A stretch of 45,374 bases of DNA from Candidatus Thorarchaeota archaeon (GCA_048882325.1 JBHLRS010000024.1:1-45374); one strand, 5' to 3'; shown: positions 7,601 to 24,834, numbered from the stretch's first letter. Notes: a model not told the origin generated them from the letters alone. Numbers and translations: made by a program.

Positions 7601-9320
7601 CATTTGAACCAAATTCAAGTGGAACAATTGGATAGACCCATTCTGAGTGATTCAAGAATGCAACTCCTGTGTCAGAAATGTTGATTGTTCCAGTTTCCTG
7701 AGAGCTCACAGTTAGCTGAACAGATCCCGAGGAGAAAGTATTTGCGCTCCTCAATTCTAAGTTGTTTAAATAGACTGTAACAAACTGACCATTTGTAGCA
7801 TCACCATCCAAATCAGAATCTGTTTCACTAATAGCTACATATGTGGCAACTGTTTCAACCTCGAGGATTATTCGAGCAGTGAAAAATGTTGGAGCTCCAG
7901 TTAGGTTAACAAGTAGTTGACCATTACTAAACCAGGTCTGCCTTTGAGTAACGTTTGTTAAATCTATAGACCAATTCCATAATTGAGTCGAGTCATCCAA
8001 GATTTCAAATCTCAATTCGAATATACCCTCAAAGTTGGTTCCGATTGGACCTCTCATGTAATTATAATCTAAATTAAAGTAGAAGAGTTCTGTTTGTTCA
8101 CTATTGTCAATGTCCTGATACCAAAAAATCCTAGTTCCATTATAATGACGAAAGTTACTTCCGTCGTAGAACCCCTCATTTTCAAGAATGACATAACTGT
8201 CTATATCTTGAACGTATGAGGCCCGTTGTCTGCCAAAAAGACTATTGACCTCACGTCGTGCCAACCAACCATCGGCATAATAAGCCCCATCACCAGCCCA
8301 ATCCTCATTAGTTCCAGGATTCCCAGATTCGAAAGTTCCATTGAGTGCATACAGCTTTCGAATGTCATTTGCAGTGACCTTGATTTTGTCACCATACCAT
8401 CCGTGAAGTGACCGTGGCACATCTCTTGAAATGGAACAGGTTCCAGATACCTGAAGGTCTAAGTCACCCACACTATCTGTCAAGTCGTTCTCAAATTCAT
8501 AATGATTAGTAAGGCTTGATTCAGTGATTGTACTCCCTGGAAGATAATCACTCTGTATTTCAGTCAGGTTTCTATCGGATATATAATATCTGAAGTCATC
8601 GATATGTCCGTCTACTTGCTGTCCAGCACGAGCAATTGAATTCAAAATGTTGTTTTCCGTATGAAATCCAACAACCGAATCAGTCCAGCCAAATGATGAA
8701 AAATCAATTGCTGGAGAGTTCGTTTCATCACCCCAGAATATAGCTAGGTAGTTTGCGGTCTCATTCCACGTGATAGCAATGAAGTACCAATGGTCCACCA
8801 ACCAGCTAGACTTAGATCCTTGAGCTGTTGAGTCACTACCCCAATCGAGGACAAACTGGTTGCTTGACCAGCGTGTTTCGAAGTTTGCGTCTTGGCCCCA
8901 AAAGCGGCCATGTGGTGCTGTACCGTCCCACTTACCCCAGAACGAAATTGTACCTGCAGGTGAACCAAAATCCGCGGCACCACCAGAACCCACGAGATAA
9001 TATCCGCCTTCACCTTCACCTGAGTAGTAATTGTCAGGGGCACTAACTGGCAAATAGACTTCCGTAGAAGGATTGGGATCAATATCCATACGAGATGAAC
9101 CTGACGTTGTCATTCCAGAAGATGCACCTGTGTGTTCAATGAGTACTGGGTCGAGTGTTCCAGAATGGATATCAGAGAATTGAGAGAGAGTTCTCTGAGA
9201 ATCAGAGTTAGTAGGAAGACTCGAATCGAGTGTTTCAGAAACCATGGGAAGACTGGCAAACGGGAGCATAGCTAGGAGGATTGCTAGTAGCGGAATAGCA
9301 ACTACTCTGTTCCTAGGCAC
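4644..9320 (-). CDS. Large single-pass surface protein: LamG/ConA-like domain, Ig-like beta repeats, TM helix, cytoplasmic longin/roadblock-like and wHTH-like tail
   Basis: Signal peptide. LamG motifs GTISFWGK, WYFIAITW, GHIDDFRYY. Many N-x-S/T sequons. TM helix AGAIGALLLLACIASIMIG. Tail LIGLLVIQRKVGLSVYSK...LLSSFIAAISQFREEF. Confidence 0.75.
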   Translation of the reverse strand: MPRNRVVAIPLLAILLAMLPFASLPMVSETLDSSLPTNSDSQRTLSQFSDIHSGTLDPVLIEHTGASSGMTTSGSSRMDIDPNPSTEVYLPVSAPDNYYSGEGEGGYYLVGSGGAADFGSPAGTISFWGKWDGTAPHGRFWGQDANFETRWSSNQFVLDWGSDSTAQGSKSSWLVDHWYFIAITWNETANYLAIFWGDETNSPAIDFSSFGWTDSVVGFHTENNILNSIARAGQQVDGHIDDFRYYISDRNLTEIQSDYLPGSTITESSLTNHYEFENDLTDSVGDLDLQVSGTCSISRDVPRSLHGWYGDKIKVTANDIRKLYALNGTFESGNPGTNEDWAGDGAYYADGWLARREVNSLFGRQRASYVQDIDSYVILENEGFYDGSNFRHYNGTRIFWYQDIDNSEQTELFYFNLDYNYMRGPIGTNFEGIFELRFEILDDSTQLWNWSIDLTNVTQRQTWFSNGQLLVNLTGAPTFFTARIILEVETVATYVAISETDSDLDGDATNGQFVTVYLNNLELRSANTFSSGSVQLTVSSQETGTINISDTGVAFLNHSEWVYPIVPLEFGSNATIVFDYSAEFSMMHRSFSSSATTSLGNLGVTFSVDLDASINISFYTYVESSPEAKDLGFRLFCPDDWENASVEDPFGTPVSVDESDMIIVPAGEVDSVGWWKVDISAPNYAKSVSTMVEDASEWFTEDIFRSNNKIRCLAEIGTQTNTVTSVTNLEMKWYLPSETLWASETLDNATGSIVIGSAWTLGSFNSTTGSWLVSVYWINGTEVAFGSTEFELHHELTMIAHTPSIDVQLGDVFTVAVNLYDLDTYTPIMNDATIVGNWSTSNVEFHPNLAKGWWEADVNSSITGTGRYSMTVNATVPFHFATNCTVEVEITSLSIMTVLGNQIVELDPDESRQIKVRYMYLDALGIEDANVSILSINGPSEGLLYSNPQFVIGEPGNYSVDFTAVLSGTYFITMSATKVGHSTAATSFYIIVGLVPASVRIEGADLPDELHFNQSYVISLFYHTNDTFGIENAIVNVTYNPASIVSWSEIGNGSYNVSIRVPQVGTYAVGLRFSKLGFDFVYIEFNFEVVKIPTSLSFYGLNGVYYEGRTYDFAIYYNSTDETGVLSAELIPSAPIRDFFVLSNTGSGWYNFTLTPTFGIWNATIWLSKEGFVEQSVRFTLTTEMIPIEISPYHHLNSTYTRYVSTILTLRFVPLSGDTGLPIENALVSYILIDAGGTGDTILTQGYFVQSLGFYIANITVPDIGLYLIRLTVTKEHHQSFVQEIVLNAVARPGTIYGSYLRAGAIGALLLLACIASIMIGKRFYTNLTTKRNLELLDLKGRLEDAKNLIGLLVIQRKVGLSVYSKIIKGGFEESLLSSFIAAISQFREEFSMDSPKWTSIPITEVITAVQSEELICVIITLESASARQKIQLETFAREVGGLYDYDDKIVTPIYRTLTEDVVETFNKVFDSYFDGQLFERYVGVKKNLPEALAPVASAFKTMKIDHGVSPDAIIKELSLLGFSERISHRIVFEALDNGYFIAAEKRLPQLLKEEETP

Positions 9321-10651: not shown

Positions 10652-12118
10652 CTAAATCAACCCTACTTTTTCGTTAAATTTCTCTATGAGTTCGTCTATC
10701 TTTGGTGTTGACTGTTGAATGTTCTCCCAGTATCTTGGGAAGTCATACCATTGAGCATTCAACTCATCAAGCTCCATTTGTTGTTGTTCAATCCAAGTGA
10801 AATACTTCAAGTGATGAATCCGCTTTCTATCATAGTGACCAAGCTCAATCATGGCGTCTGTCTTCTGAGCCATGAGATGTCTGTGATAATCCTTGATTGC
10901 ATCTTTCTCTGTGTACGTTCCATGAGCCTCACGTGCCTCTTTGATTCGCGATTGATACATGTCCATAGAATCAGTGAATACTGTGAGTACGACGTCATTC
11001 TTGGTGAGTTCATAGTACTTGGCAAACTTGATTGCCATGAGTAAGTTCGCGATGCTGGAGATTCCCAACAATGGAAGGTTTGATACAGTAGTCTCCGAAA
11101 TCCCAATATCCTTCACAAGGAATTTTCTCCCTGCATCCTCATTGAATAGCCGAATGAGGTTCATCGAATCATTGTCATCAATAGCGATGACATTGTCAGT
11201 GTTCCTAACATTGTGAATCCATGGCACATGCTTATCCCCAATCCCTTCAATCCTGTGTGCACCATAACCATTGAGCCAGAGTGTGGGACATTGCACAGCT
11301 TCACCTGCAGCAATTCTTGACTGGGGATAGACCTGTTTCATGTAGTCACCAGATCCAATAGTACCAGCAGAACCAGTAGTGAGGCATACACCTTGGTAGG
11401 TGTCATTACCCAGTTCCTTTTCGAGTACTTCCTGCATCGCATGACCTGTGACTTCATAATGCCAGAGATAGTTACCAAACTCAGCGAATTGATTGAAGAT
11501 GAAGACGTTGTCCCTAGTCGCTTTCAGTTCCGCAACTTTGTCATAGATCTCCTTGACGTTACTCTCACTACCTGGTGTTTTAATGATTTCACTCGCTACC
11601 GACTTTAACCAGTCGAATCGTTCCTGACTCATTTCTTCGGGCAGAATAGCTACGCTGTCACAGGCGAGGAGTGTTGCATCATAGGCACCACCCCTACAAT
11701 AGTTTCCAGTTGAGGGCCATACAGCTTTATGGATTGTTGGATCAAATTGGCCTGTTACGAGGGGAGGAACAAGACAACCAAATGCAGCACCAACCTTATG
11801 CGCACCTGTGGGAAAATACTTTCCAACCAGCGCTATGATTCGAGCCTCAACGCCTGAGAGCTCAGAAGGAATCTCCATATAATTAGCGAGGCGTTGAAAC
11901 TGACCGCCTTTGTCAACAGGTTCATTCTTCCAAGTGATTCTGAAGAGATTTTGAGGAACCACATCCCAGAGTTCGATTTCCTTCAGTTCATTCTTAATCC
12001 TATCAGGAACAGTACTAGGGTCTTTCATCTGTTTGAAGGTGGGAATCACTATGTTCCGTTCACGACATCTTTCAACAGTTCTCTTAAGCTGAGCCTCATT
12101 CATAGTTAAATCAATCAT
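10652..12118 (-). CDS. PLP-dependent fold-type II enzyme (cysteine synthase / Trp synthase beta superfamily), substrate unknown
   Basis: PTGAHKVG (PLP lysine), PSTGNY, TTGSAGT phosphate loop, HRIEGIGDK. Confidence 0.85.
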   Translation of the reverse strand: MIDLTMNEAQLKRTVERCRERNIVIPTFKQMKDPSTVPDRIKNELKEIELWDVVPQNLFRITWKNEPVDKGGQFQRLANYMEIPSELSGVEARIIALVGKYFPTGAHKVGAAFGCLVPPLVTGQFDPTIHKAVWPSTGNYCRGGAYDATLLACDSVAILPEEMSQERFDWLKSVASEIIKTPGSESNVKEIYDKVAELKATRDNVFIFNQFAEFGNYLWHYEVTGHAMQEVLEKELGNDTYQGVCLTTGSAGTIGSGDYMKQVYPQSRIAAGEAVQCPTLWLNGYGAHRIEGIGDKHVPWIHNVRNTDNVIAIDDNDSMNLIRLFNEDAGRKFLVKDIGISETTVSNLPLLGISSIANLLMAIKFAKYYELTKNDVVLTVFTDSMDMYQSRIKEAREAHGTYTEKDAIKDYHRHLMAQKTDAMIELGHYDRKRIHHLKYFTWIEQQQMELDELNAQWYDFPRYWENIQQSTPKIDELIEKFNEKVGLI

Positions 12119-12201: not shown

Positions 12202-13332
12202 TTAGTCAGGAGAGAGCAACTTCTCCAAGGCTAATTTCTTCTCTTGTCGGATTCTATATCCAATTACAATGTTGACTAATCCAAAAATAGCCGGGATGCT
12301 AACTAATGAGGTGATGATAAGACTCCTTAATTTCGATGTGTAAACTATGTTCATATTGTGAATTTCTATCGTGTAGTTGGTGAAGATAGTTGGATCTGGC
12401 AGACCCTCAACAGGAAACCAACGATATTGTAGTAATCGATACGGATTATCAGGACCACGAGTTAGAGTGATCCGTTTGTTGTCTGTCTTAAGCCAATTAT
12501 CGAAAAGACTTGATCTACCTCTAGTAGGATCAGCTGGGAGCATTCCAACTCCCTCTACGTAGAACATTGGATAAGCGTGAGCGATTGCTCCGTCATCAGT
12601 TCCCACAAATCCAGTATCGAAATCAGCAAGCCATGCAGTGTGGCTCACCGCTGGAATACCCAGAGACCTAGAAAGAGCTACAAATAGCGTTGTGTATTCA
12701 TCACAATCCCCCTCTGCATTTCTGAGGGCATAAGTAGCACCTCTGATTGAGCTATGTAATCTATAATCGACATAGTTCGCAGTGAAGTTGTAAATGTTGT
12801 ATGCAGTTTTTATGGGATCATCTGCAACTTCTAAGAATTGAGCTACTTTCCTGATGTTTGGGTCAGTGCTATCAGCAAGTGGATGATAGGCGGTGAAGAG
12901 CTTATACTGTTCATCTTCAACATTATATGGTTCGATTGTCAGATCAGGAGTTGTATAGTCTAAAAAGGTCAAAGTCACATTAGCATGGAACCAGAGATCA
13001 ATTGTCTGGTTAACATTGAAGTCAGTGTATTCATACCAAAGGTACTGGTTTTCATATTCGTCAGTTGTTGTTTGATTAGAGATAGAATCAGAGACAAAAC
13101 CGGTAACAGTCTGTACAGGGTCCCAGTCCTTCAGTTGTGCAAGTCTAATGGTTACAGATGTGAGGTCAAGAGGCCCTTCATTCTTCATATAGAATCTGTA
13201 GCTAAGTTGAAACTCTGCGGTTCCTCTTTCTGGTTTTTTGGATTCTTGCTCATATACAACACCAATAGCAGAGATTACAATGATGAGCAGTGCAAATCCA
13301 GCGATGTATCTTGTTGTTCTTCGTCTATTCAT
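12202..13332 (-). CDS. Membrane-anchored transglutaminase-like protein with intact Cys-His-Asp triad
   Basis: GDCDEYTTLFVALSRSLGIPA, AHAYP and ADPT motifs. N- and C-terminal TM helices. Likely ATG at 13332 overlaps the upstream TAA (TAATG). The ORF track starts it at 13353. Confidence 0.85.
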   Translation of the reverse strand: MNRRRTTRYIAGFALLIIVISAIGVVYEQESKKPERGTAEFQLSYRFYMKNEGPLDLTSVTIRLAQLKDWDPVQTVTGFVSDSISNQTTTDEYENQYLWYEYTDFNVNQTIDLWFHANVTLTFLDYTTPDLTIEPYNVEDEQYKLFTAYHPLADSTDPNIRKVAQFLEVADDPIKTAYNIYNFTANYVDYRLHSSIRGATYALRNAEGDCDEYTTLFVALSRSLGIPAVSHTAWLADFDTGFVGTDDGAIAHAYPMFYVEGVGMLPADPTRGRSSLFDNWLKTDNKRITLTRGPDNPYRLLQYRWFPVEGLPDPTIFTNYTIEIHNMNIVYTSKLRSLIITSLVSIPAIFGLVNIVIGYRIRQEKKLALEKLLSPD

Positions 13333-16300
13333 TATATTGCCTCCTGCTCCCAAATGTTCTGTGCAAGCTCAACCCCGTAACGGGCAGCCGCAGATGGAGA
13401 AAGTTCGCTGGCATCTAATCCGTGATTCTCTATGTATTCAAATCGTTCCAGCAGACTGCTTTGGCAGACATTTTGAATCTCTAGCCCAGGTCTTTTGTTC
13501 ACTTCAAGAACAAGGATTCTATCATTCTTGTCAATCACAATATCAACACCGGCGTAACCCAGACCCGTACTTTTCTGTGCCAAGCATGCAGTGGCCAATA
13601 TTTCAGACCAATTCTCTAATTCGAATCCTACGATTAACCCACCAGTGTCGGGGTGTTTTTGAACTTCAAGGCCCTTCATTTCTGCACGTGTAACTCTACC
13701 ATCAGAAATTCTAACAGCAGCTCCGATGGCACCTTGTTTAAGGTTGGCAAGACCATCGGAAGCTTCAGTTGATAGTCGCATCATAGCCATAACTGGGATT
13801 CCTCTAAAGATTATGACTCGGATGTCAGGTAGTCCGATGGATATTCGCTCCAAAGAAGGATGAGTTGTAATCAATTCCTCGATAATGACAATGTCATTGT
13901 TTGACTTGGTTTGGCTAGTAAGATATTCGCCCTTGATGATTTTTCGAATTTCGGTTTCTATAACTATAGGATTATAGATTTGAGTTCCAGAAATGAAGTT
14001 ACCATTCTCATCACGCTTCTTTACAACCAAAATTCCTTTTCCGCCAAAACTCTGTGCAGGCTTAATCACGAATCCATTCTCAAACCGTTTCTGTGTCTTC
14101 AATTGATGCATCAAATCATCGACTTGGTTCTCACTATCGACAAGAGCATAGAGTTCCGCTGTTGGAACTCGCCACTTGTCAAACTGATCTTTTAGATTGT
14201 ATTTATTTATCACTGAGAAAAGAATACCGGAGTTATACTTTGCAATGTAATTTCTATTTCTGATTTGTATCGAGAGTGGATTCTCACCTTTCTCAAACAA
14301 CCTAGTGAATCGTTTATGATCAAAAGACGTGTATTTTGTGTTTCGACCGAAATACAATACACTTGCCGCAAGGACAACCCATAGTTCAGGATTGACAACT
14401 ATGAAAGTAACAAGTATATCGATACTCATGAAGATAAACGAAGCAAGTGAGATACCCAGAGTCGTTACTAGACGCTTGAATGCGGTAAGCTGGTCTTCCT
14501 GCTCAGCCTCTACAACATACCGATCAATAAACCATGGTGTGATCAAAATCGGAACCAATATTGATCCACTAAGCAAAGGAATCAGAAAAACTTCTCCAAG
14601 TATTTCTAAAAGTCCTATAAACGAAATTGTATATATCATGAGAATTCCAATTCGGAAACCTATAGCTAGGTTAAACTGACTCAAAATCGACCTTATAATA
14701 TATCCAATAACAAATATGTTAAGAAAAATCAAGAGTCCCCAGACTGGTCCCAGAGCCAACATAGAGATGACCAGTATCGTTGGTCCGAAAAGACCCAATG
14801 TCTTCAAACCAAAGACATACTTACCAACCAGTATAATGATCATTCCTATCATGAATCTGAATAAGAAGAGTGAGGTCTCTAATACCAGTATAGCATCATG
14901 GATGAAAAATCTAGCAAGAGCTGCTATTGATCCAAAAACAACAAACAGTGCAATTAGATTCAATGATTCATTGCTAAGGAGGCTTTCTCGTTTTTCCGAT
15001 TTCAAGGTCATTTGTACCTGACCACCTTCTGTCTTTCGTTTACGTCTATAAATCGCATAACTATCAAAACCTCCAATTAGGAAGAACACTGGAAGAATCC
15101 ATGGGAGAATCGCACCAAGCAGAGGTAGAGCAGTTATCCCTCCCGGTGATATTCCAGCTATTGATGTGAGATAGAGGTATTCAGTCACTGCTGAGTTCCC
15201 ATTGCTGTCATTTGCATGGATACGAAATCTCAAAATCCCATCATCATAGAAATTTCCCATTAGGAAGATCCATTCATTTTGGTACGTTTCACTCTCATGT
15301 CCATCAAACACAAGAGGAGTGACAACACCTGTTTCATCACTAGTCCAGTCAGCTTCAACCCAAACATCCGTAATCAAACTCTCAGGGTCTAAAATAATCG
15401 ATGATAATGCGTAGGAATTCTGAAACTTGCGATAATTCTCAATACCCGGAATAAAGGTTGGAACGATGATAGGAGAAAAAAGATCTAGAGGATTCTCGCT
15501 TAGATCTGTTACAGACAAAGAATCCGGATCCATGTTTAGAAGATTCAATGTGAGGATGGCATAAAATGTCGACTCAAGTCGAGAGGAATAGCCTTGCCTT
15601 GGACCAAATCCTCCATCATTGTTGTGAAGTGAATAGATGAAATCAACTAGACCTGATTCATCCAAAGAAATATTCAGCAAGAGTGAGAGAGCCACCCCGT
15701 AGAATGTAGATTCCATTGTTGGAATAACTCGATCACGTGAAGGTACAAATCCGCCAGAAGCATTTTGGAAGTCAGATAGAGTAGTTTTGATAGGTTCAGT
15801 GGTTAGCTCACCACCCAACATCAATCGCACCATAATAGCGCGATAAGTCGAAGTGAGTGTGGAATTCAGCCCTGGGAAATTAGAATAAGTTCCATCTGGT
15901 TTTTCAAGATAACTTAGCCATGTGAAAATCGAGTTTATGTCCATTGGGTAGCTTTGTAAGTCACCTAGTAGATTGAGAGCAGAAATTGCCCAGTATGTAT
16001 GTGTTAAGTAACTAATAGTTGAGCCTGGCTGTTCTCCAAAACCACCAACCTCATTCTGTGAATTCAGTATGAATTGAATAATATCAGGAGTAGCAGTGAG
16101 AGGGTCGTCAAGACTCCGAGTTGCCCGAATTCCGAAATATGTGTATTTTACCCTGGCAGTTGTTCCAGGTCGGAAACCAAAACCGCTTCTTGTATTGCTG
16201 TACGCGTCTTCAATATACACCTTTACAGCAGGATTCACCCAACTAGTGTTCGCAAGGAGGTTGCCTATTAGTAATGCATACGCAGAGTAAGAAATGTCTG

Positions 16301-17504
16301 GAACATCACCAGGGTAATTTCCAAATCCAAAAGATGGCTGAGTTCCAGAAATAAGATAGTTATAGACACCGGTAAGATCTGGTATTGTTATTAAGAGACC
16401 GTGCTCATCAAGAATGAAAAGAAGGCGGAGCGCAAAGAAAGAAGAACTTAACTCCGCGGTTGCATCCCGGTCTGAGGCTGTGAATCCTGACCCGGCTTCC
16501 TGGTTCGCTAGAATGTAATTGAGTGCGTCTTCAAGAAATGTAATGGGCAGGTAGTCATCAATGGGAAATGAAGTTTCTGTTTTAAACAGATGCCAAAGTT
16601 GTACTGCAGCCGTTGTGTATCCCATTGTAGGCAATCCACCAGCATACCCTGCAACACCTCCACTGATGGCAACTAGGGAATTCAGGAATCTAGCGACTGA
16701 TTCGAAGCGACTGGATTCTGTAGTGTTCATAAGAAGGAAAGCTTGTAACGCATTCAAAGAGGCTAAGAGTTCAGCTTGACCTCCGATATTTTCTGAAAAT
16801 CCTGAAGCTCCATTAACAAACAATGGGGGAACAAAAGTACTGTTAATGAATGTGACTGAGGAATTGTCCAATTGAATTCCAAAGCTAGGATAGAGTGTGC
16901 CAATCTGATCCAAAATATGGACGACTCTATGAGTCGAGGAAACATCAGGAGCATCCCATAGTGGCAAAGGTAAATAACCAAAATCAACCGTCTTCAATTG
17001 AAGTAGAAAATTAACAGTTTCATTTACTTGACTCTCAGGTAGTGATGAGAGCGCATTGTAGGTCGATAAAATTTGGAGCGCCTGATATGTTGATTCGACA
17101 GAGCTTCTTGCGCCATTCCAATTTCCATATCCACCATCATCATTCCTTGATGAATTAACAAGGTCGAGGACTTCAGCTACAATTGAAGCAGGAGGTGTGA
17201 AACCAAACCAGTCGAGATAGTAAAGAGACATTCCGAGGTAATATGCGATATCCATAGAAGGAGTATCCACATCGCCATCGTTTTGGGTTGTCTGGACGAA
17301 GGACAGTATCTCCTTGATCAAAGCTTCGTCTTGGAGAATAGGCTGCTGAGCAAGTTCAAAACCAGTTTCAAGACTTTCAAAATCCGAGATTTCTAGATTA
17401 GCGTAGTGCATAATGGAGTTCGTATTGTAGCTCGGTATCAAGAATAGCAGCACAAGTATAAAGCAGGTTACTTGTGCTGCAGCTATTCTTGTCATCCTTG
17501 CCAA
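13332..17504 (-). CDS. Fusion protein: prenyltransferase/squalene-oxidase-type repeats + TM + 7TM (7TM_transglut-like) + alpha-L-glutamate-ligase-like ATP-grasp
   Basis: About 11-12 QxxxGG(F/Y)-type repeats. 7TM motifs GLKTLGLFGP, PILITPWFIDRY, NPELW...YFGR...KRF. ATP-grasp motifs RNRNYIAKYN, FVIKPAQSFGGKGILV, PDIRVIIFRGIPVMAMMRLST.ASDGLANLKQGA, GLGYAGVD, LEVNKRPGLEIQ. Confidence 0.85.
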   Translation of the reverse strand: MARMTRIAAAQVTCFILVLLFLIPSYNTNSIMHYANLEISDFESLETGFELAQQPILQDEALIKEILSFVQTTQNDGDVDTPSMDIAYYLGMSLYYLDWFGFTPPASIVAEVLDLVNSSRNDDGGYGNWNGARSSVESTYQALQILSTYNALSSLPESQVNETVNFLLQLKTVDFGYLPLPLWDAPDVSSTHRVVHILDQIGTLYPSFGIQLDNSSVTFINSTFVPPLFVNGASGFSENIGGQAELLASLNALQAFLLMNTTESSRFESVARFLNSLVAISGGVAGYAGGLPTMGYTTAAVQLWHLFKTETSFPIDDYLPITFLEDALNYILANQEAGSGFTASDRDATAELSSSFFALRLLFILDEHGLLITIPDLTGVYNYLISGTQPSFGFGNYPGDVPDISYSAYALLIGNLLANTSWVNPAVKVYIEDAYSNTRSGFGFRPGTTARVKYTYFGIRATRSLDDPLTATPDIIQFILNSQNEVGGFGEQPGSTISYLTHTYWAISALNLLGDLQSYPMDINSIFTWLSYLEKPDGTYSNFPGLNSTLTSTYRAIMVRLMLGGELTTEPIKTTLSDFQNASGGFVPSRDRVIPTMESTFYGVALSLLLNISLDESGLVDFIYSLHNNDGGFGPRQGYSSRLESTFYAILTLNLLNMDPDSLSVTDLSENPLDLFSPIIVPTFIPGIENYRKFQNSYALSSIILDPESLITDVWVEADWTSDETGVVTPLVFDGHESETYQNEWIFLMGNFYDDGILRFRIHANDSNGNSAVTEYLYLTSIAGISPGGITALPLLGAILPWILPVFFLIGGFDSYAIYRRKRKTEGGQVQMTLKSEKRESLLSNESLNLIALFVVFGSIAALARFFIHDAILVLETSLFLFRFMIGMIIILVGKYVFGLKTLGLFGPTILVISMLALGPVWGLLIFLNIFVIGYIIRSILSQFNLAIGFRIGILMIYTISFIGLLEILGEVFLIPLLSGSILVPILITPWFIDRYVVEAEQEDQLTAFKRLVTTLGISLASFIFMSIDILVTFIVVNPELWVVLAASVLYFGRNTKYTSFDHKRFTRLFEKGENPLSIQIRNRNYIAKYNSGILFSVINKYNLKDQFDKWRVPTAELYALVDSENQVDDLMHQLKTQKRFENGFVIKPAQSFGGKGILVVKKRDENGNFISGTQIYNPIVIETEIRKIIKGEYLTSQTKSNNDIVIIEELITTHPSLERISIGLPDIRVIIFRGIPVMAMMRLSTEASDGLANLKQGAIGAAVRISDGRVTRAEMKGLEVQKHPDTGGLIVGFELENWSEILATACLAQKSTGLGYAGVDIVIDKNDRILVLEVNKRPGLEIQNVCQSSLLERFEYIENHGLDASELSPSAAARYGVELAQNIWEQEAI

Positions 17505-17506
17505 CC

Positions 17507-19858
17507 CTACTTCCTTTTTCTAAGCGCAAGGGCTACAATAGATACTATTACAGCAGCACCTAGCGCGAGATATAGAAGAAGGTCTTCTGGTATCACAATT
17601 GGTGGCAAAGGACCCCGTGCAATTAGAACTGACACATCGAAGTCGATTTCAGCACCAGTCGGATCACTCAGATTGACATTTAGTATGTATGTTCCGTTAG
17701 TTAAACCAGAGATGTCAAGGTTAATTTCTCCAGCTGGATCCAGAACGCCTGAGATAATCACTGAAGTTGTTGCTGTATCGGTGATATTGTACTCGATATT
17801 ACCCAATCTACTCGTTACAGTGAATGTGACAGTATCATACCGTGTGCGTTCAAAACCTATCTCGTCGTCATAACTTGCAGTGAAATCACTGTAGATATGG
17901 AAATATCGAAGGAGATGCATGGATACAAAGGTGTATGCAACATCAGATGTGAAATCAGGATGTTCAGCATATCCACCATCAAGATTACGGATAGAATTGA
18001 TAAAGTTGAATAGACTCATCATATCCAAGGGATATGAGTCCAGAAGATATAGAGCTCGAACAGCAGAGTACGTGAAGATTGTATTTGAAATGTTGTTCGG
18101 GCGAACGGTGTCTAGTTGGCTTCTTCGAAATCCACCATCTAGATTTTGACTGCTCTGCAGAAATGTGACAGCGAGGCTAGGATTTTGAGGTTGGCTATTA
18201 AGAATGGAAAGACCTCGTATCGCTCGATAGGAACTAGTTGCATCACTTGAGTCACCAATGAAACCGCCCCAGCCTCCATCCCCATTTTGCAATCCTTGTA
18301 AATACGTAATGGCACCATTGGTGTTGAGAGGCTGAGAGCCAAGAATCTCCAAAGATCTCAAAGCTCGATAGGTAGAAACCACGTACGGAACTGTATCATT
18401 CGAACTCTTCGCAAAACCACCATTAGGCTGCTGGAGGTTCTGGAGAAATGTTATTGTTTCAGAAGAGTTGGGATAAGAAACTCCGAGTAAGTCATAGGTT
18501 TCAAGCGCACGTAAAGTGCTTTCTGCATATGACCCGGTTAGTCCAAAACCTCCATCAGGATTCCTGTACGAAGCAACATAGTCAATTATGCCTTGAGCAT
18601 TTACGGGATATTCTCCCATCAGGATGTAAGTAGACACAGCATCAAATGTTTCTCGGAGGGTGGGAGAGTCTCCCGGCGTGCCTCCAAATCCATCAGAAGT
18701 TGGAGGATTAGACATATACTCAATGGTTGCAGAAATGCTAGAAGGAGACTCTCCCAGTATTGATAAAGCATGGACTGCATAATATGTTCCCATTAGAGAG
18801 GATTCTGTGCTTGATGGACTCAGTCGAAATCCTCCATCTATGCCTTCTAGGGAATAGAGATAATCACTGACTGAGCTTATGTTCTCAGGAACGCCACCTA
18901 AGAAATCGATTGCTTCCAAGGCAGCTGCTGTGTAGGACGCGGATGTGCTGATTATGTCAACCTGGTTTACAAACCCACCTGAGCTGACTAGTTGAAGACC
19001 TCTGAGGAAGTCAAGTGCGGCGCTTGGATCTGTTGCATTAACTCCATACACACCTAATCCGAGGATAGCATCTTGGGACACAGTAGCTCTGGAAGTCCAG
19101 AAAATGCCTTTCTCACTATTTGTTTGAAGACCAAACCCGCCATCGGGGTTTTGTGCTCTACGTAGATAGGCTATAACCGCAGTACTGTTATTGGGAGTTG
19201 AACCAATCAGCTGGTAAGAACTGATGGCATGATATGTTGAATGAACATCACTATCTGCATCCAGTAGATGAGAGTTGAATCCATCTGTCAAAGAGTTCTG
19301 TAACCTATCAAGGTAATTCTCAACAGCAGTTTCATTCAGTCCAGAATAACCTAGCCAATCTAGAACTTGCAAAGCCATGTGAGTAGGGGAAATACTACTG
19401 CGATCATCTTCCCAATTTCCAAATCCACCTGAAGTTCTCTGGAATGAGAGGACTTGGGAAGTCAGAAATGAGATATCGGATGGTGAAAGTGATATTAGTG
19501 TAGGATCTAGAATCTTGAGCGTTCCAACGCGATAATAAATCTGTTCTATGGAAACTGCGGTATTTCCAGCAATATTCCTAGTTTTATTGACAAAGCTCAA
19601 AGTTTTTTGATCATAAACCGGAGTAGCATAAACTGTCGGGGAGTGCATGACAACCTCTGCACTGACGTCTGTTCTGAACATACTCGATTGAGTGTTGTTC
19701 GGGTTGACGGAAATATCACTAAGAGGAAGTATAAACAAAACAAGTAAACCAATTAGTAATCCGATTCTGAGTGCTTTTTGTGATTGAACCATTTCTACAA
19801 CCATCTTTTGTTTCAATCGTGAAGGTAGAAGCAACCAATCAAAGGGTGGTGGTGGCAA
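17507..19858 (-). CDS. Secreted, membrane-anchored prenyltransferase/squalene-oxidase-type repeat protein
   Basis: About 11 repeats of LxxxQxxDGG(F/W/Y)...STYxAxxxLxxLG, with an N-terminal signal/TM and a C-terminal TM + RKRK. True start is probably ATG 19804 or 19792. Confidence 0.82.
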   Translation of the reverse strand: MPPPPFDWLLLPSRLKQKMVVEMVQSQKALRIGLLIGLLVLFILPLSDISVNPNNTQSSMFRTDVSAEVVMHSPTVYATPVYDQKTLSFVNKTRNIAGNTAVSIEQIYYRVGTLKILDPTLISLSPSDISFLTSQVLSFQRTSGGFGNWEDDRSSISPTHMALQVLDWLGYSGLNETAVENYLDRLQNSLTDGFNSHLLDADSDVHSTYHAISSYQLIGSTPNNSTAVIAYLRRAQNPDGGFGLQTNSEKGIFWTSRATVSQDAILGLGVYGVNATDPSAALDFLRGLQLVSSGGFVNQVDIISTSASYTAAALEAIDFLGGVPENISSVSDYLYSLEGIDGGFRLSPSSTESSLMGTYYAVHALSILGESPSSISATIEYMSNPPTSDGFGGTPGDSPTLRETFDAVSTYILMGEYPVNAQGIIDYVASYRNPDGGFGLTGSYAESTLRALETYDLLGVSYPNSSETITFLQNLQQPNGGFAKSSNDTVPYVVSTYRALRSLEILGSQPLNTNGAITYLQGLQNGDGGWGGFIGDSSDATSSYRAIRGLSILNSQPQNPSLAVTFLQSSQNLDGGFRRSQLDTVRPNNISNTIFTYSAVRALYLLDSYPLDMMSLFNFINSIRNLDGGYAEHPDFTSDVAYTFVSMHLLRYFHIYSDFTASYDDEIGFERTRYDTVTFTVTSRLGNIEYNITDTATTSVIISGVLDPAGEINLDISGLTNGTYILNVNLSDPTGAEIDFDVSVLIARGPLPPIVIPEDLLLYLALGAAVIVSIVALALRKRK

Positions 19859-20217
19859 CCTTCGCGGCTTGTATCAAAAACAGTGTATAGATAATATATA
19901 ATGATGATTTTGTACCTTTGTAATTTCAACGAAACAAAGAGTCCTGATAGACCTCTATTCTCCGAATAACACTTTATAACAGTTCGAAAAAGTTCCTAGA
20001 TAGAATATAACCGGACATAAACAGTACCATAAAACTAGTCGCAGACTAGGAAATAGGCCTCTATAGAATGGTTAATAATGAACCATAGTGAAAACCGACT
20101 CAGGAAGAGGAGCTAACTCCTCTAGTTGATGATTAGCGTTAATGCTACTTTGTATCTGGTCTTTGAGTTTGGACTAGACACTCACCTTGAAAGATAATAT
20201 CGGTGGGTAGAATTAAG

Positions 20218-22959
20218 ATGAGTAAAGAAAAACACGTGTACACTTTTGGCGCAGGTAAAGCTGATGGCGATTCAACCATGAAGAACCTACTGGGTGGAAA
20301 GGGAGCTTCTCTCGCAGGTGCGACATTACTCGGTCTCCCTGTACCACCAGGTTTTACGATTTCAACGGACGTTTGTAACATGTTCCTTGCCTCGGGAGGA
20401 TTAAGTGACGAGGTCAAGGAAGAGGCAAAGGCTTCAATGACTCGCATTGAGGAGTTTATGGGTAAGAAATTCGGTGATCCCAACAATCCACTCCTTGTGT
20501 CTGCGAGGTCAGGCGCACGCCAGTCAATGCCAGGAATGATGGAAACAGTCCTAAACGTAGGCTTAACGACTTCAACTATACCTGGTCTAATTCAAACAAC
20601 GCAAAATGAGCGGTTTGTCTACGATTCCTATAGACGACTCATTACCATGTACAGTGATGTCGTGATGGAAAAAGCGGAGGGAATCGAACCTGATGAGGGA
20701 CATGGAATTAGAGCCCAACTTGAGAGAATTCTAGAGAGAAAGAAGAAGGAAGTTGGTTGTCTTACAGATACCTGTCTGAAAGTTGATGATTTGAAAGATC
20801 TTTGTGATGAGTACAAAGATGCCATAAGAAAGACACTAGGTAGAGAATTCCCAGACGATCCTTATGAGCAACTCTGGGCAGCCATTGGAGCAGTCTTCAA
20901 GAGCTGGGGAGGCGCCCGTGCTGTCGCTTATCGGCGTATCGAGAACATTCCCGATGAGTGGGGAACTGCATGTACAGTGCAGAGTATGGTCTTTGGAAAC
21001 ATGGGAGAGAGCTCTGCTACTGGAGTCGCATTCTCAAGAAATCCCGCCACTGGAGAGGACAAATTCTATGGTGAGTTTCTGATCAACGCACAGGGAGAAG
21101 ATGTCGTCGCAGGGATACGAACTCCCAATGCTATGAACGAGGAGAGCAAGAATGAGCAGAGTAAGGATCTTCCAACCCTTGAGGAAACCATGCCTGAAAT
21201 ATACGCACAGCTCGTGGATATCAAGAATACACTTGAAGATGACACTAAAGACATGGTTGACATAGAGTTTACAATTCAAGAAGGCGTGTTGTTCTTAGTG
21301 CAGCACCGAGTTGGTAAGAGGACTGCCACAGCTGCGTTGAACATTGCCATGGATATGCTGCAAAGCAAGTTTATTGATGAACCGACTGCCATCCTTAGAG
21401 TTGCTCCAGAGCAACTTGGCCAGCTCTTATATCCCATCCTAGATCCGGACGAGGAGGCTAAGGCATCACCCATAGCGAGAGGTCTTCCTGCAGGACCAGG
21501 TGGTGCAGTCGGTCAGATTGTCTTCACTTCTGAAGCTGCAGTAGAGTGGACCAAGAAGAACAAGAAGGTCGTTCTCATCAGAGAAGAAACCAGTCCGGAG
21601 GACATTGAAGGCATGCGAGCCGCAAATGCTATCCTCACTGCCCGGGGAGGAATGACCAGCCACGCTGCACTTGTTACACGGGGGTGGGGAAAGTGTTGTA
21701 TCGTTGGAGCTGCAGGGCTCGATATCAATACATTCGAGAAAACAGTCACAATTGGTGGAAAGCTCTTCAAGGAAGGGGATGTTCTAACACTCAATGGAAC
21801 ACAGGGTCTAGTTTATGAGGGAGAGCTCCCAATGATTGAAGCAACTGAGAATCCTCAATTACAGCAATTTATGGGACTCATTGATAAGTATCGAAAGCTT
21901 GGCGTTCGTGCAAATGCGGACACTCCAGAAGATGCAAAGGTTGCCCTCGAGTTTGGTGCAGAAGGAATTGGACTACTCAGAACTGAACACATGTTCTATG
22001 GTGAGGGAAGTGATGAACCTCTATTCCTATTGAGAAAGATGATTCTTAGTAAGACTAGAAGCGAGCGACATCGTGCACTCGCTGAGCTTGCGCCATTTGT
22101 CAAGGAGGACATCAAAGCTACTCTAGCAGTCATGAATGGTCTACCTGTCACAATCCGACTTCTTGATCCTCCACTCCATGAGTTCGTTCCTCAGTCAAGG
22201 TTTGGACAAGAGAAGCTCGCCCATGCCCTAGGCATCGAAACAGAGGATGTCCAGAAACGAGGTGAGCAGATACATGAGAATAATCCGATGATGGGACATC
22301 GAGGTGTCAGACTAGCCATAACATATCCAGAAATCTATGAGATGCAAATTAGAGCGATTCTAGAAGCTGGAGCAGAGCTGCTCAAGGAGGGGAAGAAGGT
22401 CTCTATCGAGATAATGATCCCAGTAACTATTGGCGCTGCTGAGCTAAAGACTATGGAACTCGTCGTTGAGCGAGTCTATGATGAAGTCAGAAGGGAGGTC
22501 GGGGTTGACATTCCCTATCTATATGGCACAATGATTGAAACACCACGCGCATGTATGCGAGCAGGGGACATGGCTCAAAGTGCCAGGTTCTTCTCGTTCG
22601 GTACTAATGACCTATCACAGTTGAGTTTTGGATTCAGTCGGGATGACATTGACTCGTTTCTGCCTGAGTATCTAGACCGGCACATCCTAAGGAATGATCC
22701 TTTTGTTAGCATCGATAAACGAGGAATGGGTCAACTGATGCAGATAGCAATTGAGAGAGGTAGACAAACACGTCCCGATATCAAACTGGGTGTGTGTGGC
22801 GAACATGGTGGAGACCCACGCTCAGTAGGGTTCTTTCATGAGATTGGTTTGGACTATGTTTCATGCTCGCCTTATAGACTTCCGATTGCGCGTCTAGCAG
22901 CAGCTCAGGCAGCTATCCAAGAGGTTGATTGGCTTCTTCTGAAGGACAAATCAAAATAA
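20218..22959 (+). CDS. ppdK: Pyruvate, phosphate dikinase
   Basis: LLGGKG, PVPPGF, PLLVSARSGA, GEDVVAGIRTP, GGMTSHAA phospho-His, GIGLLRTEHMF, SFGTNDL, CGEHGG. ATG 20218 preferred over GTG 20203. Confidence 0.96.
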   Translation: MSKEKHVYTFGAGKADGDSTMKNLLGGKGASLAGATLLGLPVPPGFTISTDVCNMFLASGGLSDEVKEEAKASMTRIEEFMGKKFGDPNNPLLVSARSGARQSMPGMMETVLNVGLTTSTIPGLIQTTQNERFVYDSYRRLITMYSDVVMEKAEGIEPDEGHGIRAQLERILERKKKEVGCLTDTCLKVDDLKDLCDEYKDAIRKTLGREFPDDPYEQLWAAIGAVFKSWGGARAVAYRRIENIPDEWGTACTVQSMVFGNMGESSATGVAFSRNPATGEDKFYGEFLINAQGEDVVAGIRTPNAMNEESKNEQSKDLPTLEETMPEIYAQLVDIKNTLEDDTKDMVDIEFTIQEGVLFLVQHRVGKRTATAALNIAMDMLQSKFIDEPTAILRVAPEQLGQLLYPILDPDEEAKASPIARGLPAGPGGAVGQIVFTSEAAVEWTKKNKKVVLIREETSPEDIEGMRAANAILTARGGMTSHAALVTRGWGKCCIVGAAGLDINTFEKTVTIGGKLFKEGDVLTLNGTQGLVYEGELPMIEATENPQLQQFMGLIDKYRKLGVRANADTPEDAKVALEFGAEGIGLLRTEHMFYGEGSDEPLFLLRKMILSKTRSERHRALAELAPFVKEDIKATLAVMNGLPVTIRLLDPPLHEFVPQSRFGQEKLAHALGIETEDVQKRGEQIHENNPMMGHRGVRLAITYPEIYEMQIRAILEAGAELLKEGKKVSIEIMIPVTIGAAELKTMELVVERVYDEVRREVGVDIPYLYGTMIETPRACMRAGDMAQSARFFSFGTNDLSQLSFGFSRDDIDSFLPEYLDRHILRNDPFVSIDKRGMGQLMQIAIERGRQTRPDIKLGVCGEHGGDPRSVGFFHEIGLDYVSCSPYRLPIARLAAAQAAIQEVDWLLLKDKSK

Positions 22960-22997: not shown

Positions 22998-24608
22998 CTA
23001 TTCTTTCCAATTAGCGTATTTTCTACTGAATTGTCTATTCGATTTCAGACTTACTAACACGATCGATACAATTACACCAATGGATACTCCTGCAATAGTT
23101 CCCAGAAATGCAACAGGAAAAGAAGCTCGATGTTCTCGAACTGTCACGAGCACCTCATCAGAGATGATTCCACCATCTGGACCGGGATTCTCGAACGTAA
23201 GTTCGTAAACATGGGTTCCAAGTGTCAAATTATCAACACAGATGCTGATATTTCCGCTGACCCAATCCGCCTGACGAACAAGCTCACCATCTCGGAGGAT
23301 TTGGTAATCAAAGGGTGCAGCCTCAGAAAACGTAAGTAGACCACTCTGTACGTCATAGATACACTGTACCTCCCAAACGAGAAAATTACCTGTGACGCCT
23401 GAAGAATATGTTATGTCCTGAGGATGGCTTATAGCAATGTTCGGCAGTGGTGGAGGCGGCGGAGTAGGAACAAAATGTGGAGAATAAGCATCAGTATAAT
23501 CACCCGGCCAATAGTTTGACTCATCGTCCACAGATGCAAGACCAGAAACAAGGTCGACACTGAAAGCCCTAATCCGAAAGAAAGAGTCTTCGTTCCACAA
23601 GAACCCGCTTGAATTCCAGACATAGTATGTTCTAGTCAAATTTCTTTTTAAAAGCTGGAAAGACCAGCCCCAATCATTAGTCAACCAGACTGAGAAATAA
23701 TTTGTATCATTAGCATTCAGATCTGTTGCGCTCCAGGTGATGTTACGCAAATTTCCTCCTAGATCTGCTACCTCATGTACAATGACCTTCGGTTTGAAGA
23801 AGTTGCAAATAGTTATGTTCTGATAGTTGAAAACAATTGTTTCATTCAACGAAGTTGTTCCGGTCATTTGAACATCAAGTGTCTGATTTCTCCTCTCCAA
23901 TGTGTAAGTATCATATACAATACTATTTGATGAATCTGCAATAATCTTGTGAACACCAACACTGAGAATCAATGTCCAATTACCAGGAGTAGCATCATAA
24001 TTCAGACAACCGATGTACATTGTATCATTATCGTATTCCCATTCAAAAGTATCAGTTTCAGGATTTCTCCCCGAAGTCATTTGCACCAGGTTATTTGCAT
24101 ATGAAAACAAGGAGTAATTCTGAGCCCCACTCCATACCATAAGATCACTATCACCATTAGTATGATACATTGTGAGATTGATAGTCAGCCCTTCCTCGAT
24201 GTTTCTGACAACGATCCAGTCAAACTGGTCATGATCGATATTGCCAGAAAATTGATCATCAGGATTTCCAGTTGGAAGTACAAGACTTCGAGTCGTGTTA
24301 ATTTGGAAACCATTTTCTAGCTTAAGTTCAGTGTGTATGACATTCATCGATGATGGAAATGTTGCATTCAATACAACGTGGTCTCCTACAATCTCAGAGT
24401 TATTGATAAGTTTCTGTGGTGATGAAGACCACCTAGAGGTCCAGGTTAGAGAGCTGTTATCTCCTGTGGAAAGGAATACGGGATTATAATCAGTCACTCG
24501 AGTCGAATGTCCAGTTTTCAGGTCGTAGCGAGAGATTGAGGATGCAGGTGTATTTGGCAAGAAAATCAGTAGAATGAAGACTGTTGCGAATATCAACCTG
24601 ATTTTCAT
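22998..24608 (-). CDS. Secreted, membrane-anchored beta-rich surface protein with Pro-rich linker and Ig-like domain
   Basis: Likely start ATG 24608 (MKIRLIFATVFILLIFLPNTPASS signal peptide). PTPPPPPLP linker, ISHPQDITYSSGVTGNFLVW module similar to 9606-10631, C-terminal TM + basic tail. Confidence 0.72.
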   Translation of the reverse strand: MKIRLIFATVFILLIFLPNTPASSISRYDLKTGHSTRVTDYNPVFLSTGDNSSLTWTSRWSSSPQKLINNSEIVGDHVVLNATFPSSMNVIHTELKLENGFQINTTRSLVLPTGNPDDQFSGNIDHDQFDWIVVRNIEEGLTINLTMYHTNGDSDLMVWSGAQNYSLFSYANNLVQMTSGRNPETDTFEWEYDNDTMYIGCLNYDATPGNWTLILSVGVHKIIADSSNSIVYDTYTLERRNQTLDVQMTGTTSLNETIVFNYQNITICNFFKPKVIVHEVADLGGNLRNITWSATDLNANDTNYFSVWLTNDWGWSFQLLKRNLTRTYYVWNSSGFLWNEDSFFRIRAFSVDLVSGLASVDDESNYWPGDYTDAYSPHFVPTPPPPPLPNIAISHPQDITYSSGVTGNFLVWEVQCIYDVQSGLLTFSEAAPFDYQILRDGELVRQADWVSGNISICVDNLTLGTHVYELTFENPGPDGGIISDEVLVTVREHRASFPVAFLGTIAGVSIGVIVSIVLVSLKSNRQFSRKYANWKE

Positions 24609-24834
24609 CAATAGTGCCCTCAACAGGCTTTTCTGGACTGACAGGATGCCTCTCCAAAGTCTCCTCCTGTTTTCTTTTATTCGCATTAATATTGTGCAAA
24701 TTTCGATATCAATCTAACCATAGAACATTTCATCGAACGCTGTTGAGGAGTATACGAGAGGTGAAAGTGAACACTTAAAACAGGGACCAATTGGCCAGAC
24801 GTCTGATACACATCATATCTTGAGGATTGAAACA

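Follow-up and report, generated by a model that had tools for sequence, protein, structure and literature searches.

A conserved three-gene archaeal cassette of predicted surface toroids, a membrane-bound ATP-grasp ligase and a transglutaminase-fold protein: a variant of the bacterial Rlo envelope system

What can three adjacent genes build together if a membrane protein made by them has an ATP-dependent ligase on its inner side and, as predicted, an acyl-transfer enzyme on its outer side? The question is raised by a stretch of DNA from a Candidatus Thorarchaeota archaeon (GCA_048882325.1, JBHLRS010000024.1:1-45374). This window of 45,374 nucleotides makes up an entire 45-kb contig; the genome has 3.6 Mb and is 93% complete. 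Positions 12202-19858 carry three genes, here called g1, g2 and g3. A preliminary description had read them as a cell-surface system for ligating or cross-linking peptides. We identify the cassette as conserved and uncharacterised, an archaeal variant of Rlo, a bacterial envelope system that is itself poorly understood. The sequence evidence is best explained by one operon, which would encode an Rlo-type trans-membrane envelope machine. We give a probability of about one half to the reading that this machine makes a product in the cytoplasm, exports it, and attaches or cleaves it outside.

The same three genes are present in other genomes. A scan of species genomes gave 42 loci, and 27-29 of them have the cassette order. 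These loci belong to several archaeal phyla and to independent assemblies, and their flanking genes all differ. The g1 orthologue is directly upstream of g2 in 24 loci. Because this gene order recurs in about 27 independent assemblies, the cassette is far beyond chance, and the synteny in relatives that had been at issue is there. The closest public locus is that of a Thorarchaeota metagenome-assembled genome (MAG). All-against-all clustering of the flanks of 29 loci revealed no conserved fourth gene, for example a protease.

The central gene, g2, joins repeat barrels to a seven-transmembrane (7TM) core and an ATP-grasp ligase. A search with its 7TM-ligase part found about 28 clusters of uninterrupted, full-length barrel-7TM-ATP-grasp proteins of 1340-1510 amino acids (aa) in Thor-, Odin- and Heimdallarchaeota. 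This establishes the fusion as real, and its uninterrupted course in more than 20 assemblies sets aside an assembly artefact. The g3 gene encodes a protein of the transglutaminase (TGase) fold. It has 38 close homologue clusters, all the named ones Asgard, followed by a gap from E 1e-103 to 1e-13. In at least 18 of these clusters, the longest contig matches in size that of a listed g2 homologue, and we took the two as the same contig.

The cassette exists in two forms. The long form, to which the cassette of the window belongs, is a single clade (SH-like approximate likelihood ratio test, SH-aLRT, 100) on a long stem and, among named records, is found in Asgard only. The short form keeps the gene order and is orthologous to g1, the g2 core and g3. 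It consists of a longer barrel protein (900-1000 aa), a 7TM-ATP-grasp protein of about 545 aa without a barrel, and a TGase-like protein with Ser or Ala at the nucleophile position. Its hosts are Thermoplasmatota, Woese- and Micrarchaeota (DPANN), one Thaumarchaeote and one Promethearchaeote (loci L017-L033). So the host of the window is an Asgard archaeon, as its nearest locus indicates, but the cassette is not specific to Asgard, contrary to what its presentation as an Asgard pathway could suggest. Public records give the proteins generic names, for example [quoted passage not shown] or "transglutaminase family protein".

The three open reading frames (ORFs) are on the minus strand and are transcribed in the order g1, g2, g3. 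The longest ORF of g1 spans 17507-19858. A likelier start is the ATG at 19804 or at 19792, the latter being used by the Atlas record. The stop codon of g1 is TAG at 17509-17507. A TTG start of g2 at 17504 leaves a 2-bp gap, and the alternative ATG at 17495 leaves 11 bp; public records take the ATG, listing 1387 aa. The TAA stop of g2 (13334-13332) overlaps the ATG of g3 (13332-13330) in the string TAATG at 13334-13330 (-1 bp). The co-orientation, the 2-bp gap (from the TTG) and the TAATG overlap of the preliminary description can be read directly from the DNA, and Pfam matches all its domain calls (Prenyltrans, 7TM_transglut, ATPgrasp_ST, Transglut_core). Only its outer limits need correction. 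Positions 19858 and 13353 mark how far out the ORFs could begin, and the likely starts are 19804 or 19792 for g1 and 13332 for g3. An AT-rich spacer of 340 bp separates g1 from a divergent pyruvate-phosphate dikinase gene.

Among characterised systems, the nearest is RloABC of Pseudomonas aeruginosa (Rlo, retropepsin-like osmotic stress tolerance; bioRxiv 10.1101/2025.03.18.643919 / PMC12239564). RloA, a retropepsin, is secreted and cuts runs of at least eight Glu; RloB is an inactive TGase fused to a 7TM domain, and RloC is a cytoplasmic ATP-grasp enzyme (10.1101/2025.03.18.643919). P. aeruginosa without secreted RloA proteases is rescued by deletion of rloB or rloC (10.1101/2025.03.18.643919). 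We read this rescue as a sign that RloB and RloC make something that needs clearance outside the cytoplasm. RloABC is the bacterial precedent that had been described in general terms, a separate ATP-grasp gene beside an inactive TGase-7TM gene and a protease. Like RloABC, the cassette is a three-gene unit with a PF14402 7TM core and a RimK-related cytoplasmic ligase of the ATPgrasp_ST/TIGR02291-like type. On the outer side, each has a TGase-fold domain and an enzyme that cleaves peptide bonds, which for g3 is a prediction. Unlike RloABC, the cassette has its 7TM core and ligase in one chain. Its TGase is separate, doubly anchored and intact in its triad, whereas that of RloB is an inactive fused domain. 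Two double alpha/alpha-toroid modules are added, the archaeal host has no periplasm, and the cassette scores under the NCBIfam cut-offs for RloB and for the RloC family.

The neighbourhood of ATP-grasp, 7TM and TGase genes was reportedly first described by Iyer et al. in 2009. In bacteria, single chains of about 800 aa also combine TGase, 7TM and ATP-grasp (P0035 of Thalassomonas sp. RHCl1, and P0034, P0036 and P0037). They share the three modules with the cassette, and their 7TM core and ligase are collinear with those of g2. These uncharacterised chains have no toroids, whereas in the cassette the TGase is split off and barrels stand at the N-terminus of the 7TM chain. The g3 protein aligns with the TGase domain of P0035, Cys, His and Asp included (hhalign probability 98%). 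Since g3 is homologous to the TGase of these fusions, the TGase has been split off as a gene of its own and not replaced. The preliminary description had the barrels in its place; they are an addition. By the same alignment, TGase, 7TM and ligase form an old core, in which archaea encode the anchored TGase separately. Likewise, the 7TM-ligase fusion is real in the window but not special to it. It is the rule in archaeal cassettes and is present in bacteria too.

The ATPgrasp_ST family is repeatedly fused or linked to peptidases, namely PF05618, PF08014 (MATCAP-like), a subtilase and TGase. RimK and RimB, a poly-alpha-L-glutamate ligase and a retropepsin, show the same ligase-peptidase pairing. 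RimK is the closest solved sequence relative of the g2 ligase; unlike g2, it is soluble, acts on the cytoplasmic ribosomal protein S6 and has no membrane domain or external partners. TGase-like domains in ATP-grasp operons have been predicted to be peptidases acting on ligase-made tags (Zhang & Aravind 2012, PMC3495828). Two observations concern further fusions of this family. The protein P0032 (935 aa) consists of 7TM, ATP-grasp, a transmembrane helix and a C-terminal subtilase (PF00082) predicted to be external, and it groups with a Thermoplasmata short form in the tree. Ligase and peptidase form one chain in proteins P0038-P0104, from Patescibacteria of the candidate phyla radiation (CPR) and others; the fusion partner of ATPgrasp_ST there is PF08014 ("tyrosine/phenylalanine carboxypeptidase domain") or the PF05618 retropepsin.

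Pfam finds in g2 the fusion that had been proposed: barrels paralogous to those of g1 (Prenyltrans, 1e-37), the 7TM domain (7TM_transglut, 2e-18) and the ATP-grasp ligase (ATPgrasp_ST, 4e-56). The ligase reaches 190.6 bits against PF14397 ATPgrasp_ST, with a cut-off of 31.4. Against TIGR02291, the RloC-type alpha-L-glutamate ligase-like equivalog, it reaches 216 bits (E 5e-64) and the cut-off is 314.2. As it lies above the first cut-off and below the second, it is related to RloC yet outside the equivalog. Residues K1148, G1154-G1157, E1209, D1321, E1334, N1336 and R1338 are invariant in 20 homologues. The ATP-grasp blocks are kept (K1148 with the Gly-rich loop, DIR, ANLKQG as NLxxG, D1321 and E1334-x-N1336) and align to RimK (7qys, 5zct). 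We take the conserved residues to be binders of ATP and Mg2+. The best fold matches are ArgX (Z 16.6), RimK (Z 15.9) and LysX (Z 14.9). A phmmer search of the PDB with the ATP-grasp region alone found nothing at E 1e-3, and a profile search aligned RimK. With these blocks in place, the ligase is apparently active.

The 7TM core is recognised by PF14402 over residues 882-1069 (E 2.3e-18, 67 bits against a cut-off of 25). The NCBIfam RloB model NF052267 matches at E 7.8e-10 with 38 bits against a cut-off of 900, and covers the 7TM part alone. By sequence, the core is collinear with the seven hydrophobic segments (counted by eye) that follow the TGase domain of P0035. The AlphaFold2 (AF2) model of residues 780-1390, built on 38 homologues, has a predicted local distance difference test score (pLDDT) of 87 and a predicted template modelling score (pTM) of 0.80. 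An Atlas feature search with residues 840-1075 gave no usable match.

The third protein matches PF01841 Transglut_core (E 4e-14, 53.3 bits against a cut-off of 23). Its AF2 model (pLDDT 91) consists of an N-terminal transmembrane helix, a beta-sandwich, a transglutaminase core and a C-terminal transmembrane helix. A phmmer search of the PDB with g3 gave no meaningful match, and the fold search succeeded. The best folds are 3isr, a putative Cys protease (E 2e-16, TM-score 0.71 by target), and the periplasmic domain of TgpA, 6g4h (E 4e-7). Among the fold relatives, 3isr and LapG are annotated as proteases, and the activity of TgpA is unknown. Like g3, TgpA (P. aeruginosa) and 3isr (Cytophaga hutchinsonii), both of the bacterial transglutaminase-like Cys proteinase type, have a beta-sandwich and a TGase core with Cys-His-Asp outside the cytoplasmic membrane. 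Unlike them, g3 has a transmembrane anchor at both ends and a fixed genomic pairing with a 7TM-ATP-grasp gene; the sequence similarity is below detection by phmmer.

The catalytic residues of g3 differ in their conservation. H259 and D275 are invariant in all 27 members of the family. C217 is present in each of the 13 long forms, where it is every time the sole Cys of the protein. The short-form members have Ser at this position (GGSAE[LF]), and one has Ala (L028). The genes with Ser are in loci L017-L033, for example L018:12188-13252 and L021:12220-13287. This Ser could belong to a Ser-His-Asp triad on a papain/TGase fold, or the domain could serve for binding only. The doubly anchored protein with an intact Cys-His-Asp triad that had been described is what the sequence of g3 predicts.

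Does g3 touch g2? Residues S340, P354 and F357 inside its C-terminal transmembrane helix are nearly invariant, which we read as packing of this helix with a partner. The predicted complex of g3 with g2(780-1390) has a binding score of 0.51 (best of three controls, 0.00); of 80 solved complexes, 58 reach the mark for this score, as do 2 of 110 mismatched pairs, and at 0.60 or below those reaching it are just 7 of the 80 solved complexes plus both passing mismatches. The runs agree in at least 90% of the contacts, with a partner pLDDT of at least 84. The model hints that g3 may bind g2(780-1390), and the near-invariant helix residues point likewise.

The arrangement across the membrane can be read from several features. 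Basic clusters follow TM-a and the last transmembrane helix of g2, in a positive-inside pattern. In g1 and g3, there is a hydrophobic helix at each end with basic residues after it. As an independent check, sequons for N-glycosylation number 1.3-1.9 per 100 residues in the three predicted ectodomains; the ligase, with the same Asn content, has 0.3. Across 19 homologues, the values are 1.71 for the ectodomains and 0.48 for the ligase. Because the 7TM core matches the segments after the TGase domain of P0035, which is taken as periplasmic, the ligase should be cytoplasmic and the barrels outside. We infer that the g2 chain puts its toroids outside and its ligase inside, and that g3 is outside. 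This agrees with the earlier placement of an ATP-grasp ligase inside, here with motifs that align to RimK, and of an external TGase. The ectodomains are strongly acidic (in g1, 71 D+E and 33 K+R).

The barrels of g1 and g2 are alpha/alpha-toroids of the prenyltransferase type. In g1, Pfam Prenyltrans (PF00432) matches in four stretches at E 6e-50. The best sequence match in the PDB is the beta subunit of Rab geranylgeranyltransferase (GGTase), at E 9e-15. The g1 repeat array has roughly the length of two (alpha/alpha)6 toroids. Single-toroid Atlas models (267-309 aa) align to g1 at TM-scores of 0.85-0.90 by the match; the Atlas model of g1 itself is of middling confidence (pLDDT 0.73). The C-terminal segment of g1 is kept in long-form loci. 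With the Prenyltrans match and a hydrophobic helix at both ends, g1 is predicted to be the anchored extracellular repeat-barrel protein of the preliminary description. The barrels of g1 and g2 find each other in phmmer searches at E 1e-13 to 1e-36, and the host genome has just one further Prenyltrans ORF.

The toroids do not look like enzymes. A motif search of g1 and of the g2 ectodomain found no DxDD, DDxxD or CGEQ. There is no Cys in g1 or in the g2 ectodomain, and no conserved Cys across either barrel family. The Asp-Cys-His zinc site known from prenyltransferases is therefore missing, as are the acidic cyclase motifs and the thioester that defines thioester domains (TED). We considered the barrels as prenyltransferases, terpene cyclases or thioester domains, and ruled these out as they have no catalytic motif or conserved Cys. 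The conserved Gln, Gly and aromatic positions belong to a structural repeat motif. From their sequences, we read the toroids as non-catalytic modules for binding or as a scaffold.

Other features of the barrels were also observed. In residues 202-545 of g1, the conserved arginines R402, R450, R498 and R545 follow a period of about 48 aa. Barrel proteins of both the long and the short form share a conserved D202-x-D204. In a Woesearchaeota locus, the barrel protein (L018:7851-10565) matches the Pfam Ribophorin_II N-terminal domain with 28.5 bits against a gathering threshold of 23.4, and g1 reaches 18.8. Atlas clusters of archaeal toroid proteins carry the Ribophorin_II family too. A link between archaeal surface toroids and a subunit of the eukaryotic oligosaccharyltransferase is possible.

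How could these parts work together? In the reading that we prefer, the cytoplasmic ligase would use ATP to add amino acids, most likely acidic ones in the manner of RimK, to a peptide or another carboxylate. The 7TM core would pass the product outward. Outside, without ATP, g3 would attack the ligase-made amide through an acyl-enzyme. This acyl-enzyme would then be hydrolysed, which is the role of RloA in Pseudomonas, or transferred to an amine on a surface molecule. The non-catalytic toroids would hold the product or the acceptor. Similar working logic, with no homology of the systems, is found in D-Ala-D-Ala ligase followed by external DD-/LD-transpeptidases, in CapD anchoring poly-gamma-glutamate, and in a candidate pseudomurein transglutaminase (PMC11915815). 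The logic of D-Ala-D-Ala ligase and transpeptidase would make sense of Cys and Ser nucleophiles alike; by analogy, Cys in Asgard and Ser in other archaea may be likened to LD- and DD-transpeptidases. The earlier idea of making, exporting and attaching would be plausible, and it fits the RloABC genetics. Its stricter version seems doubtful to us. There, the ligase would build a peptide tail or polymer, the 7TM domain would thread it out, and the TGase-fold enzyme would attach it to surface proteins held by the toroids.

Several points weigh against making, exporting and attaching or cleaving. An RloA-type retropepsin (PF05618) has no match in the own genome, which is 93% complete, and none is conserved in the flanks of the 29 loci. 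Asgard archaea carry the cassette patchily: 17 of the 301 sampled genomes have it, as do 6 of the 90 of high quality and 3 of the 25 from the same genus. It is hence an accessory trait. The substrate of the ligase may differ from that of RloC, as its 216 bits against 314 could indicate. Classical transglutaminases act on Gln side chains and not on alpha-Glu peptides of the RimK type. The Ser of the short form, once Ala, suggests that catalysis by the TGase partner may not be universal. Transporter similarity has not been demonstrated for the 7TM core, whole-model fold searches being filled by ATP-grasp matches and the core fold not having been searched alone. Finally, the acidic ectodomains would not favour bulk binding of a polyanion.

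Could the signal run in the opposite direction? The toroids and the TGase fold would then sense a ligand in the envelope, the 7TM domain would relay it, and the ligase would modify a cytoplasmic target, as RimK does with S6, with nothing exported. The closest relatives of the ligase (RimK, LysX, ArgX) all act on cytoplasmic proteins, and the pTM of 0.80 for 7TM plus ligase would suit a rigid coupling. The searches that were uninformative on the core leave it without a demonstrated transporter relative, and the nucleophile-less TGase-like protein of L028 is what a binding module could look like. However, the triad is kept in 13 of 13 long forms with the single Cys of g3 as nucleophile, which argues for catalysis outside. 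In Pseudomonas, the genetics link what RloB and RloC make to secreted proteases, and in P0032 the same ligase family is fused across a transmembrane helix to an external subtilase. We hold such outside-in control to be quite improbable.

A modification of glycans or lipid carriers also seems unlikely. Here the ATP-grasp enzyme would amidate a carboxylate linked to a sugar or polyprenyl, the toroids would bind the carrier or glycan, and g3 would trim the unit or transfer it onto surface glycoproteins. The Pfam name of the ligase family ("sugar-transfer associated"), the isoprenoids bound by characterised relatives of the toroid fold, the Ribophorin II matches of some orthologous barrel proteins (as in L018) and the sequon-rich ectodomains all suit this idea. 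Nevertheless, no glycosyltransferase, flippase or sugar-nucleotide gene is conserved beside the cassette, and in relatives the epimerase (24820-25788) is not found in synteny. No motif of prenyl chemistry is present in the toroids, and Rlo points to peptide substrates. As for a chance adjacency, or a g2 fusion produced by assembly or gene calling with no joint function, a Heimdallarchaeota locus (L013) does carry g2 in two overlapping frames. Against it stand the uninterrupted fusions of about 28 clusters, the identical gene order across phyla with differing flanks, and the overlap of stop and start codons. This leaves it with next to no probability.

Literature searches for the archaeal architecture found no paper that describes or characterises the archaeal cassette. 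As far as these searches reached, the split of Cys and Ser nucleophiles between archaeal forms and the motif-less toroids of prenyltransferase fold at the cell surface are undescribed. Asgard cell surfaces are biochemically almost unknown, and the cassette is a discrete three-gene module that might be expressed heterologously. It is a second, differently wired version of Rlo. Compared with RloB and RloC, its fused 7TM-ligase and its TGase with intact catalytic residues could prove simpler to dissect. Should the doubtful attachment of a polymer to surface proteins prove true, the cassette would make a new kind of archaeal envelope polymer or capsule. It would provide self-contained, ATP-energised covalent chemistry outside the cell, and would also reveal the role of the bacterial Rlo system. 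Its weight is limited, since it is a patchy accessory trait and not an Asgard hallmark, and since we infer its function. The positions of its features are collected in Table 1.

Table 1. Positions of the three genes and their features in the window (residue numbers refer to the respective protein).
Feature	Coordinates	Strand	Description
g1	17507..19804	-	about 765 aa, alternative start ATG 19792; predicted doubly membrane-anchored extracellular alpha/alpha-toroid protein
g1 N-terminal hydrophobic helix (signal anchor or signal peptide)	19700..19783	-	residues 26-53 of P0001; hydropathy peak 2.37, K/R residues before
g1 repeat array	17849..19591	-	about 11 tandem hairpin repeats of 44-54 aa (about 48 aa), motif (Q..)[DN]GGFG
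g1 beta-rich stalk and C-terminal transmembrane helix	17513..17848	-	stalk, residues about 671-750 (putative beta fold, read from sequence); transmembrane helix 753-782 ending RKRK, hydropathy peak 2.68
g2	13332..17504	-	1387-1390 aa; signal/anchor, double toroid, beta-sandwich, TM-a, TM1, 7TM core, ATP-grasp
g2 toroid region, predicted extracellular	15465..17327	-	residues about 60-680; divergent paralogue of the g1 toroids
g2 candidate internal start	15009..15026	-	ATG 15011-15009 (Met832), GGTGG 15026-15022 before it
g2 membrane region	14340..15125	-	transmembrane helix TM-a 794-826, then RRKRK; TM1 846-866; RloB-type 7TM core 879-1055 (TM2-TM8)
g2 ATP-grasp ligase, RimK/RloC-like, predicted cytoplasmic	13335..14273	-	residues 1078-1390; PF14397
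g3	12202..13332	-	376 aa; N-terminal transmembrane helix, beta-sandwich, TGase core, C-terminal transmembrane helix; transglutaminase-fold Cys-His-Asp protein
g3 triad codons	12529..12705	-	C217 12705-12703, H259 12579-12577, D275 12531-12529

Within g2, a second start of translation is a lead. Met832 is kept in about 15 of 20 long forms, roughly a dozen residues ahead of where the short-form proteins start aligning. A motif like that of Shine-Dalgarno (SD) sequences, AGGAGG, is at the corresponding site in L014 and L015. The Met is missing in the closest homologue, P0005, and purine-rich codons alone could generate SD-like motifs before it. A start at Met832 would yield a barrel-less 7TM-ATP-grasp protein resembling the short form. 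In the Heimdallarchaeota MAG (L013:1193-5384), the g2 orthologue is split just before TM-a. Its barrel part (830 aa) and its 7TM-ATP-grasp part (568 aa) are separate ORFs whose frames overlap. The split is either a frameshift, possibly a sequencing error, or natural.

Natronomonas sp. EA1 has a lone 768-aa 7TM-ATP-grasp gene (L029:7626-9932), whose neighbours are a TauE exporter and a Na+/H+ antiporter. The 7TM-ligase unit can thus stand alone. We considered the locus as a possible link to haloarchaeal polyglutamyl envelopes; it has no TGase or barrel gene nearby, and its neighbours are unrelated. In three Thermoplasmatota loci (L021:3344-7783, L024:3478-7839, L033:3-4265), a gene of about 1480 aa is directly upstream of the barrel gene. 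It combines BcrAD_BadFG and DUF2229, of the CoA-enzyme activase type.

We rejected three neighbours in the window as parts of the system: the PALP gene (10652-12118), the pyruvate-phosphate dikinase gene (20203-22959) and the epimerase gene (24820-25788). Synteny of these genes is limited to the closest relative, L005, or absent. At E 1e-3, Pfam gives no match for two large minus-strand ORFs of the window, at 4644-9320 (1558 aa) and 22998-24686 (562 aa). The former has a 60%-identical counterpart in L005 only.

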